From NCBI RefSeq assembly GCF_003334305.1, contig NZ_QOWS01000005.1: a DNA stretch of 64,000 nucleotides. One strand, given 5' to 3'. This stretch comes from Escherichia coli (lineage in GTDB: Bacteria > Pseudomonadota > Gammaproteobacteria > Enterobacterales > Enterobacteriaceae). Every line of letters begins with the position of its first letter. The first letter of the stretch is position 1. The position numbers and the translations under genes are program-made. This document shows positions 12,607 to 50,061 of the stretch, piece after piece. A model generated the notes under the pieces. The model was not told the origin of the DNA. It saw only the letters and a program-made list of their open reading frames with translations, and made no database searches.

Positions 12607-13539
12607 ATGTGGTCAGAATATTCACTCGAAGTTGTTGATGCGGTAGCGCGTAATGGTAGTTTTAGCGCTGCGGCACAGGAGCTGCATCGCGTTCCTTCTG
12701 CGGTCAGCTATACCGTGCGTCAGCTGGAAGAGTGGCTGGCGGTGCCGCTCTTTGAACGACGGCACCGTGATGTGGAGCTGACCGCTGCTGGAGCGTGGTT
12801 TCTCAAAGAAGGGCGCTCTGTTGTCAAAAAAATGCAGATCACCCGCCAGCAATGTCAGCAGATAGCGAACGGCTGGCGCGGTCAGTTAGCTATCGCAGTG
12901 GATAATATTGTCAGGCCAGAACGTACACGGCAGATGATCGTTGATTTTTATCGCCATTTTGATGATGTCGAACTTCTTGTCTTTCAGGAAGTGTTCAACG
13001 GTGTCTGGGATGCGCTTTCCGACGGGCGCGTGGAACTGGCGATTGGCGCAACACGCGCGATTCCGGTAGGCGGTCGTTATGCCTTCCGGGATATGGGGAT
13101 GCTAAGCTGGAGTTGCGTTGTTGCCAGCCACCACCCGCTGGCGTTGATGGATGGCCCATTCAGCGATGATACGTTGCGCAACTGGCCGTCGTTGGTGCGC
13201 GAAGACACCTCGCGAACGCTACCTAAACGTATTACCTGGTTGCTGGATAACCAAAAAAGAGTTGTCGTGCCTGACTGGGAATCATCGGCAACCTGTATCT
13301 CGGCAGGATTATGCATAGGGATGGTGCCAACACATTTCGCCAAACCGTGGCTTAATGAGGGGAAGTGGGTAGCACTTGAATTGGAAAACCCCTTCCCGGA
13401 TTCGGCATGTTGTCTGACATGGCAGCAAAATGATATGTCGCCTGCGTTAACCTGGCTGCTTGAGTATCTCGGCGATAGTGAGACGCTGAATAAGGAGTGG
13501 CTGCGGGAGCCGGAAGAGACTCCCGCAACGGGTGATTAA
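12607..13539 (+). CDS. punR: LysR-family transcriptional regulator (PunR, formerly YdhB)
   Basis: ORF-track 310 aa; N-terminal HTH; divergent from punC. Confidence 0.9.
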
Positions 13540-14561
13540 CGACGATAGTCGCGGAACGGGCCGTCAGCCACGGAGCGGCGTTCAATCAAGCGCGGATGCA
13601 CTTCAATGGACTGCGGTTCTTCACGTTTGTTGACGATACGATCCAACAGCATGTTGAACGCTGTTTCACCCAGCGAATCTTTTGGCTGGTGGATCGTGGT
13701 CAGCGCCGGCGTAAAATAGCGGGCGTTGCGCACGTTATCATAACCGATCAGCGAAACATCCTGCGGGACGCGCAGACCCATTTCATCAGCAGCACAAAGT
13801 GCGCCCATTGCCATGATATCGCCACCACAGAAGACGGCAGTAGGGCGATGCGGCTGCGACAGTATTTGCTGCATGGCGCGATAACCAGATTCGGGTTCAA
13901 AGTCACCCTGAACAATCCAGCTTTCCGGCACCTTGATCATCGCTTCTTCCATCGCCTTCATAAAACCGGCAAGGCGGCCTGCGCCGGTGTTACGTTCCAG
14001 CGGGCCGGGGATGACGCCGATTTCGCGGTGACCGCGTTCAATCAGATAACGCCCGGCCATGTAGCCGCCTTCGAACGCGTTATCAATGACCGCATCGGTG
14101 AAGTCAGCTTTTGCTTCACCCCAGTCCATCACCACCATTGGGATATGGCGATACTCTTCCAGCATCGCCAGCAACGGCTCTGGGTACTCAGAACACATCA
14201 CCAGCAGACCATCGACGCGTTTTTGCGCCATCATCGACAGATAAGCCCGCTGTTTCTCAAGATTGTTCCACGCATTACCCAGAATCAGGGTGTAACCTTT
14301 CTGGAAGCAATTTTTTTCAACCGCTTCAATGATCTCGGCAAAATAGGCCGCTTCGCTGCTGGTCGCCAGCAAACCGATAGACTTGGTGTGGTTAACCTTC
14401 AGGCTACGCGCCACCGCGCTAGGGGAGTAGTGTAATTCTTTAATCGCTGCCCACACGGCGTTGCGCGTTTCTTCAGCGACGAAACGTGTTTTGTTGATTA
14501 CGTGTGACACAGTTGTAGTGGAAACGTTTGCTCGTTTCGCTACATCTTTTATTGTTGCCAT
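13536..14561 (-). CDS. purR: Purine repressor PurR (LacI family)
   Basis: ORF-track 341 aa starting [33 protein letters not shown]; stop overlaps punR stop within palindrome TTAA. Confidence 0.95.
14518..14533 (-). promoter_or_regulatory. Second PUR-box-like operator inside the 5' end of purR coding sequence
   Basis: Minus-strand GAGCAAACGTTTCCAC; spacing (~80 bp from first box) fits the known two-operator autoregulation of purR. Confidence 0.5.
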
Positions 14562-14605
14562 TCCATTTCACTCCAGACCCTAACTTCAGCTCCTGCAAAA
14601 TCGCA

Positions 14606-14621
14606 AGGTAAACGTTTGCCT
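14606..14621 (-). promoter_or_regulatory. PurR operator (PUR box) in purR 5' leader
   Basis: Minus-strand AGGCAAACGTTTACCT, near-palindrome with the AAACGTTT core of the PUR box; about 45 nt upstream of the purR start codon. Confidence 0.6.
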
Positions 14622-14859
14622 TTACACACCTTACGCACAACAAAAGTGTTGCGGTACGCCGGAAAAACGACACGGAGCGTCAGGAAGGGGTCAATGGCCA
14701 GTACGCAAATAGTGTAAGCGTGGAATTTTGGCCGATCTTGACGAAAAGGGGAAGTGGTAAAAACACTTATCATTATAAATGACGGGAGATTTTTTCATCA
14801 CAGTGTGTAAAAATGCGTAATATCACTTTTTGTGTGGTAATAAAAAAGGAGAAAACTTG

Positions 14860-14949
14860 ATGAGCACCGACCTTAAATTTTCACTGGTAACAACGATTAT
14901 CGTCCTCGGTTTGATCGTAGCCGTGGGTTTGACTGCCGCGCTGCACTGA
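14860..14949 (+). CDS. ynhF: Small membrane protein YnhF (29 aa)
   Basis: Not in ORF track (below length cutoff); ATG at 14860 after GGAG, encodes MSTDLKFSLVTTIIVLGLIVAVGLTAALH, single TM helix; matches remembered ynhF. Confidence 0.7.
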   Translation: MSTDLKFSLVTTIIVLGLIVAVGLTAALH

Positions 14950-15114
14950 TTTCCTCTCGAGGGAGCGCGTTCTCCCTCGCATCTCCTTCCTGTTTGTTAG
15001 CAAAATGGCAAAAGTGTTTTCTCTTTTTGTTATTTTCATTTTTTTGTGATTGCTGTCATGCTTTCGCCACTTTAATGAATATCGCGTAATGACGCGAAGA
15101 GGTGGAGATAAGGC

Positions 15115-49059: not shown

Positions 49060-50061
49060 TTACTTCGCGGCGACTTTTTCTCGCAGTGCGCGTTTTTCCT
49101 CAGCGCTGAGGAAAGCCATTTCCAGACCATTAATCTGTGCCTGGCGGATTTGCTCGCGGGATAACCCAGCAGCTGGCGCGGCAACGGTATATTCGTGAAT
49201 GATATCCACTCCCTGTACGCCGGGATCGTCAGTGTTAATGCTGGCACGAATGCCATGCTCAAGGAACGTTTTCAGCGGATGTGCAGCCAGCTCTGCTACG
49301 GTGCTGGTCTGAATATTGGAGGTCAGACAGGATTCAATACCAATTTGTTGCTCGGCGAGAAAATCCATCAGCGCCCGATCTTCAATGGCTTTTACGCCAT
49401 GTCCAATACGCTCCGCACCCAGTTCACGAATCGCCTGCCAGATGCTTTCCGGCCCGGCAGCTTCGCCTGCATGGACGGTAATATGCCAGCCCGCATCACG
49501 CGCGCGGTTGAAGTGAGAAAGGAACAGACTTCCCGGGAAACCAAGTTCATCACCGGCTAAATCAAGTGCGGTAATCTGGTCACGGTGGGCTAAAAAGGCC
49601 TCCAGCTCTTGCTGACAGGCGGCTTCGCCGAAGGTCCGGCTCATAATGCCGATAAGCTTCGCCTGCACACCAAAGGTGCGGCAACCTTCACGTACGCCAT
49701 CGATCACCGCTTCGACAACACCCGCTACAGGCAGCTGATGTGCCATTGCCATGTAGCCTGGTGAAAAACGCAGCTCGACATAGTGCAGGCCGTGACGGGC
49801 TGCATCTTCAATGTTTTCAAATGCCACGCGGCGACAGGCATCAAGAGAGGCGAGAACTTTAACGCCCCAGTCAAGTTTGGTCAGAAAGCTCACCAGATCG
49901 GGTTCGTTGGCAATGACCTGAACGTGGGGAATCAGTGTTTCCAGGGATTGTGCAGGAAGCGAGATATTATACTGGCGGCCAAGTTCAAGAATGGTCTGGG
50001 GACGAATGTTGCCATCAAGGTGGCGATGGATATCAGTTAATGGCAGGGTGGTATCAATCAT
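49060..50061 (-). CDS. add: Adenosine deaminase
   Basis: ORF-track 333 aa starting [28 protein letters not shown]. Confidence 0.95.

Follow-up and report, generated by a model that had tools for sequence, protein, structure and literature searches.

The window analysed here is a 64,000-nucleotide stretch of an Escherichia coli contig (NZ_QOWS01000005.1, RefSeq assembly GCF_003334305.1), in which the gene order runs ydhV ... cfa, punC, punR, purR, cydH, ydhP, sodB ... add. The subject of the analysis is the junction between punR (ydhB) and purR, which lie tail to tail on opposite strands. Both are real genes. PunR, a LysR-type activator of punC, carries the Pfam domains HTH_1 (residues 7-62) and LysR_substrate (residues 88-290), the last of which ends at residue 290, and the purine repressor PurR is represented in the PDB by chains that cover residues 2-341, which anchors its C-terminus experimentally. 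The features that bear on the junction are the following:

12607-13539, plus strand: punR (ydhB) coding sequence, 310 amino acids (open reading frame list, RefSeq annotation)
13350-13499, minus strand: C-rich, G-poor stretch, candidate Rho loading region (base counts)
13497-13498, minus strand: steady-state 3' end of the purR mRNA (Term-seq, Adams et al. 2021 eLife, supplementary file 1)
13500-13529, minus strand: 12-bp stem-loop (folding, shuffles, covariation)
13516-13536, plus strand: PunR extension E304-D310, seven residues (78-species tail alignment, in-frame stop walk)
13536-13539, no strand assigned: TTAA tetramer containing both stop codons (read from the sequence)
13536-14561, minus strand: coding sequence of the purine repressor gene purR, 341 amino acids (open reading frame list, RefSeq annotation, PDB chains)

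Read directly, positions 13531-13542 are GGT GAT TAA CGA. The punR stop codon TAA occupies 13537-13539 on the plus strand, and the purR stop codon TAA is the complement of 13536-13538 on the minus strand. The two genes thus overlap by 4 bp (TTAA) without any intergenic DNA, as had been proposed in a first-pass annotation of this DNA and as is borne out by the sequence, the open reading frame list and RefSeq. That proposal depended on neither gene having a different stop, and the RefSeq/PGAP annotation gives the same stops, with identical coordinates for punR and purR in a strain that is 100% identical at the junction. The arrangement is also close to invariant within the species, with 5394 of 5424 complete E. 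coli genomes matching the 100 bases around the junction at an identity of 99% or higher.

The overlap conforms to a published class of opposite-strand, tail-to-tail gene pairs that share exactly 4 nt of the form YTAR, in this case TTAA. The four-base sequences CTAA, TTAA, CTAG and TTAG cause the frequency of convergent overlaps to jump at a length of 4 (Lillo and Krakauer 2007, Biol Direct, PMC2174442), and overlaps shorter than 5 bp accounted for 672 of the 1890 convergent overlaps in the 58 genomes covered by that study. E. coli contributed 58 convergent overlaps, 21 of which had a predicted rho-independent terminator inside the partner gene (PMC2174442). Adams et al. (2021 eLife) list 99 Term-seq 3' ends that are classified both as 'primary' and as 'antisense'. 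Terminators that lie within the partner coding sequence are thus common in E. coli. The punR/purR pair does not differ in kind from the class of Lillo and Krakauer, with which it shares two convergent coding sequences and an overlap of exactly 4 nt in which TTAA provides both stops. What it adds is a per-locus history of stop codons across the Enterobacterales, in which the punR stop alternates between a hairpin loop, the tetramer and deeper positions. Nor is the overlap beyond chance expectation. Of the 78 species, 77 have a purR that ends in ...CG[T/C]-TAA and one has TGA. The complement of any Y-TAA end invariably contains TAA or TAG in one of its three frames, and the overlap is therefore no more than chance would provide. 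It is, moreover, already known, in that it is present in every RefSeq E. coli annotation and that the tetramer class was described in 2007; our literature search found no paper that discusses the punR-purR overlap as such.

Other convergent junctions of the window are similarly compact. The pair sodC/ydhK (28255/28256) is separated by a gap of 0 nt and the pair ydhT/ydhS (3651/3663) by one of 11 nt, neither of which leaves room for an intergenic terminator. The remaining convergent pairs of the window are mostly 34-50 nt apart, and tight junctions are therefore usual here.

From the geometry of the overlap, the first-pass annotation had concluded that there was no room for a terminator between the two genes. 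This conclusion fails, as a 3'-end-forming stem-loop is embedded in the punR coding sequence (13500-13529) and the 3' end of the purR mRNA has been mapped by Term-seq immediately past it. When either strand was folded, a strong hairpin formed close to the 3' end of punR, within the gene. Read in the purR sense, its 5' arm spans 13529-13518, the loop 13517-13512 and the 3' arm 13511-13500; the structure begins 7 nt after the stop codon of purR and falls within punR codons 299-308. Its minimum free energy in the purR sense is -23.2 kcal/mol (z = -6.1), and none of 200 dinucleotide shuffles was as stable; in the punR sense the E. coli hairpin is weaker, at -15.9 to -17.1 kcal/mol (z = -1.6). A search of Rfam returned no family at the junction. 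The possibility that the hairpin is a REP-type repeat was ruled out using a covariance model of the hairpin (R1), which had a single match in the window.

The 3' end of purR reported by Adams et al. (2021 eLife) corresponds to MG1655 positions 1738907 and 1738908, recorded in two conditions and labelled 'primary' for purR and 'antisense' for ydhB. The 3' end was taken as position 51 of the 61-mer given in the Term-seq table, a convention that was checked on the aspU and aspV tRNA entries. On the window, the purR mRNA consequently ends 2-3 nt beyond the stem and 38-39 nt beyond the purR stop, antisense to punR.

Several further observations concern the opposite end of purR and other RNA matches in the window. 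Two exact GCAAACGTTT PurR-box cores are found on the minus strand, at 14608-14619 in the purR 5' UTR and at 14520-14531 in codons 11-14, 88 nt from each other, and they fit the two autoregulatory operators of purR. Further 3' ends listed by Term-seq are 14572, which precedes the purR start codon by 11 nt, and 14453, which is 108 nt into the open reading frame. The Rfam 'sRNA' family STnc550 has a full-length match at 14562-14952 on the plus strand (396 bits), starting beside the purR start codon and ending at the stop of cydH (ynhF, 29 amino acids, 14860-14949). Given this span, the family corresponds to the 5' UTR and open reading frame of the cydH mRNA, the 3' end of which is very abundant in Term-seq. 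A match to the Rfam 'antisense RNA' family HPnc0260 (5689-5851, plus strand, 112 bits) lies opposite one of two tRNA-Val genes (5813-5889) and the 5' region of ydhR.

The conservation of the stem-loop was assessed by scanning species-representative genomes with PurR, which yielded 80 Enterobacteriaceae loci, 78 of them usable. When each sequence was folded singly, every one of the 78 species showed a hairpin at this location, 7-16 bp long and with a mean of -19.6 kcal/mol, even though the set comprises 73 distinct sequences. A plain MAFFT alignment placed the 5' arms out of register as loop lengths differ, and a covariance-model alignment was used instead. In this alignment, 86% of cells are paired, versus 35-51% when the partners were slid by 1-3 columns. 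Compensatory double changes were detected in 8 of the 12 pairs of the structure-fitted alignment of the 78 species. Compensatory cells numbered 61, and shuffling gave 15 +/- 6, without a count as high in any of 500 shuffles. Being fitted to the structure, the alignment leans towards it, and the single-sequence folding provides the independent support. We also considered whether the hairpin is selected on the purR transcript only. This was rejected, as the two strands were equally stable across the 78 species (-20.8 versus -20.5 kcal/mol, Wilcoxon p = 0.49) and had similar numbers of G-U pairs (43 versus 40). Given this equal stability, sequence alone cannot restrict the action of the hairpin to the purR transcript. 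These data are best read as selection maintaining the stem-loop, and not the overlap.

The punR stop was located in each of the 78 Enterobacteriaceae species by walking the punR frame to its first in-frame stop. The purR stop is fixed among these species and the punR stop is variable. In 46 species, punR stops in the hairpin loop or at its edge, leaving a gap of 14-33 nt to the purR stop and a PunR protein that ends in EWLREP[E/A/D]. In 30 species, it stops at the tetramer (23 TTAA, 7 CTAA). The two stops abut in Yokenella, and in K. pneumoniae punR runs 74 nt into purR and PunR is annotated with 334 amino acids. Outside the family, the two genes overlap by 4 bp in Serratia and Erwinia and are 72 nt apart in Pantoea, and the punR reading frame of Y. 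pseudotuberculosis extends 138 nt into purR and is called as a 376-residue protein. Apparent overlaps of 53-122 nt in several genera were discarded as tblastn alignments that ran through an in-frame stop, the species concerned having their stop in the loop, and real long reading frames were found only in K. pneumoniae (74 nt) and Y. pseudotuberculosis (138 nt). The extra 24-70 PunR residues of these two species (K. pneumoniae, L069 P0008; Y. pseudotuberculosis, L085 P0113) are encoded by the spacer together with the purR antisense strand, and such long tails are probably junk acquired after loss of the usual stop.

The seven-residue extension E304-D310 of E. coli PunR is an addition relative to the 303-residue forms that have their stop in the loop, orthologs of which length were recovered in a protein search. 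It falls outside the Pfam domains, and the tail beyond EWLREP is not conserved, even among species that share the overlap. Had the 46 species with a stop in the loop lost it, punR would be expected to overlap purR by 4 bp in 9 of them, to abut it or leave a small gap in another 9, and to overlap it at greater length in the others, and these predictions fit the observed mixture of stop states. The stop may have moved in either direction, from loop to tetramer or the reverse, as the 4-bp state is also present in Serratia and Erwinia. In Erwinia sp. 9145 (locus L084, 3330-3415), the conserved punR codons TLNHEWLSE (CGCTGAGCCATTCATGGTTCAGCG) themselves form the stem-loop that follows the purR stop, without a tail extension, and this constitutes a different solution at the same position. 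The behavior of punR resembles the stop-codon-loss model of gene overlap (PMC2174442, PMC3887535), in that the length of the reading frame changes through loss or gain of stops and punR runs on to the next in-frame stop, giving forms of 303, 310, 334 and 376 amino acids. It differs from that model in that the sites available to the punR stop are shaped by RNA structure, stops being tolerated in the loop and not in the GC-rich stem.

The reading that we favor, with a probability of roughly 0.8, is that this is a common compact convergent junction in which the overlap is a by-product of punR reading through the purR 3' stem-loop and has no function of its own. Under this interpretation, the GC-rich stem-loop located 7 nt past the purR stop would be under selection and would define the 3' end of the purR mRNA, and the punR frame would enter it from the opposite side. 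Since stop codons are AT-rich, the loop is the only site in the hairpin where a stop costs no base pair, and in some 60% of Enterobacteriaceae species punR does end in this AT-rich loop. Where the loop holds no stop, as in E. coli and many other species, translation would proceed through the stop-free GC-rich arm and add seven more, non-conserved residues, and punR would then end at the next stop in its frame, formed by the complement of the purR ...CGT-TAA. Both the PunR tail and the overlap would, on this account, be neutral.

For the formation of the purR 3' end itself, the route that we prefer is one in which RNA polymerase would pass the hairpin and be released downstream, most likely by Rho acting on C-rich untranslated RNA, after which exonucleases would trim the purR RNA back to the stem. 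The structure departs from a canonical intrinsic terminator in two respects. It does have a GC-rich, stable stem-loop (12 bp, -23.2 kcal/mol), but no 7-8 nt U-tract directly follows the stem, and the mapped RNA stops 2-3 nt from the stem instead of about 7-9 nt. The tail after the stem in E. coli, CACUCCUUAUUC, contains 3 U in its first 8 nt and 5 U in 12 nt, and the mean number of U in the 8-nt tail across the 78 species is 1.9, versus 1.8 on the other side of the stem. A scan for consensus terminators did not flag the hairpin and identified no canonical terminator at the junction. Its only match, a weak 5-bp candidate at 13659-13675 on the plus strand, lies inside purR and was set aside as not separable from coding constraint. 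Downstream of the stem, the purR-sense ratio of C to G is 1.58 over 13400-13499 and 1.59 over 13350-13499. Rho-dependent transcripts have been described as undergoing diffuse downstream termination followed by trimming to a protective stem-loop that lacks a U-tract, with C exceeding G after it (Dar and Sorek 2018, NAR, PMC6061677). The purR end shares with this class a stable stem-loop without a U-tract, a precise end just past the stem and a downstream bias of C over G. It differs in that the stem-loop lies inside a convergent coding sequence and not in intergenic DNA, and the likeness is one of sequence and 3' end position. Release by Rho followed by trimming is preferred since the tail, the end position and the C/G pattern of purR all match that class. 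The Rho-region file of Adams et al. (2021) contains no entry naming purR, and the TERMITe supplements do not mention purR or punR.

The same purR 3' end could be given by a weak intrinsic terminator or by a terminator of the collision type. In the first case, the hairpin would be a weak, Rho-independent terminator, and the mapped end would result from trimming after termination within CACUCCUUAUUC. The strong GC-rich stem and the five U residues of the 12-nt tail speak for this explanation, and inefficient intrinsic termination backed by Rho is to be expected in such cases (PMC6061677). We regard it nonetheless as rather unlikely, given that only three of the first eight tail bases are U and that U-richness is not conserved across the species, that the mapped end is closer to the stem than the 7-9 nt of intrinsic termination and that the consensus scan did not call the hairpin.

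In the second case, the hairpin would act as a bidirectional terminator at which polymerases arriving from both sides are paused and then released by head-on and trailing collisions. Terminators of this type at convergent E. coli genes are unlike intrinsic terminators and Rho-independent (Ju et al. 2019; Wang et al., bioRxiv 10.1101/2022.10.23.513370), and the punR-purR element resembles them as a hairpin at a convergent boundary that is likewise unlike an intrinsic terminator. The location of the hairpin, the lack of a U-tract on either side of a stable stem and the equal stability of the two strands across species are all in agreement with such a mechanism. It differs from the described elements, however, in that one of the two 3' ends is mapped, that of purR, the Term-seq tables holding no 'primary' end for ydhB, and in that the element is translated on one strand. 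Translation through the hairpin in the punR sense should hinder its folding, and the E. coli hairpin is in any case the weaker one in that sense. For collisions to occur, both genes would also have to be transcribed often, and the expression of punR appears weak, as judged from its promoter, which is a predicted sigma-24 promoter (PunR paper). On balance, we consider a collision-type terminator improbable. Release by Rho and trimming back to the stem thus remains the preferred account of the purR 3' end.

The first-pass annotation had further taken the missing intergenic terminator to imply transcriptional read-through or interference between the two regulators. With respect to read-through, part of this holds. 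Without intergenic DNA, neither transcript can end short of the partner gene, and Term-seq shows purR RNA reaching at least 38 nt into punR. The step from an absence of room to an absence of a terminator does not hold, in view of the conserved stem-loop inside the punR coding sequence. For the punR transcript, no 3' end or Rho-termination region was present in the searched files of Adams et al. (2021), and neither the consensus scan nor folding found anything resembling a canonical terminator after the punR stop. In the punR sense, the RNA shows no enrichment in C over the 100 nt that follow the stop (C/G 0.87), and becomes C-rich only some 500 nt later. Since E. coli punR has its stop 8-10 nt past the hairpin, trimming of its message back to that structure would remove the stop codon, and a functional punR mRNA must therefore be expected to extend into purR.

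Interference between the regulators, on the other hand, is unsupported. In RNA-seq of a punR deletion, only punC changed (PunR paper), the overlap geometry is not conserved among the 78 species, and none of the literature found discusses a link between punR and purR through the overlap. The mutual regulation expected of an excludon-like arrangement is likewise not apparent in the deletion RNA-seq, with punC alone altered, a result that is indirect and comes from one condition. As a side observation, add (adenosine deaminase, 49156-50000, minus strand), which is upregulated together with punC in response to adenine (PunR paper), lies in the same window, 36 kb from punR-punC.

These results bear on a third alternative, in line with the first-pass annotation, according to which there is no terminator between the genes and mutual read-through takes place, with convergent transcription or the pairing of 3' ends (at least 42 nt) coupling the two regulators. 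The antisense extension of purR RNA into punR, the need for functional punR mRNA to pass the hairpin in order to include its stop and hence to enter purR, the lack of a mapped punR 3' end or of a canonical-like terminator after punR, and the role of both genes in purine metabolism are compatible with it. Against it stand the restriction of the punR-deletion response to punC, the absence of any antisense or Rho-termination region naming purR or ydhB from the searched Adams et al. files and the apparently weak expression of punR suggested by its sigma-24 promoter prediction. The distribution of stop states, with a gap in 46 of the 78 species and a 4-bp overlap in 30, argues against selection on the overlap, and the arrangement is common genome-wide. 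We therefore see little probability in such a coupling. A more specific version of a post-transcriptional link, which we put forward as a long shot, is that the two genes would be linked by the stem-loop and by mRNA 3' ends that are complementary over at least 42 nt. Strong purR transcription would then truncate punR messages before their stop, either by pairing of the purR 3' UTR with punR mRNA or by collision of the polymerases, and so tune the two regulators reciprocally. If this were true, purine repression and purine-nucleoside uptake would be reciprocally tuned in lineages with the 4-bp overlap and not in those with the stop in the loop. Finally, an annotation or sequencing artefact in which one of the genes was given the wrong stop found no support and is virtually excluded, since the stops of both reading frames are unambiguous, nearly all complete genomes (5394/5424) match the junction at 99% identity or more, the PDB chains of PurR extend to residue 341 and 310-residue PunR orthologs are widespread in protein searches.

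The reading of the overlap as a by-product of punR passing through the purR stem-loop has a practical consequence. Judging from the coordinates, any editing of the punR 3' end would touch either the purR stop or its 3' stem-loop, and the phenotypes of punR alleles could thus include effects on purR. By the same coordinates, the published C-terminal 8-myc fusion of chromosomal punR at the TTAA (the ChIP-exo strain), or any punR deletion removing 13500-13518, would alter the purR stop or the stem-loop. As a discovery, the overlap matters little. The locus is of value, instead, as a well-sampled example of an mRNA 3'-end stem-loop that is translated on the opposite strand, in which RNA structure, and not protein function, would dictate the C-terminal tail of PunR and the sites at which its reading frame may stop.
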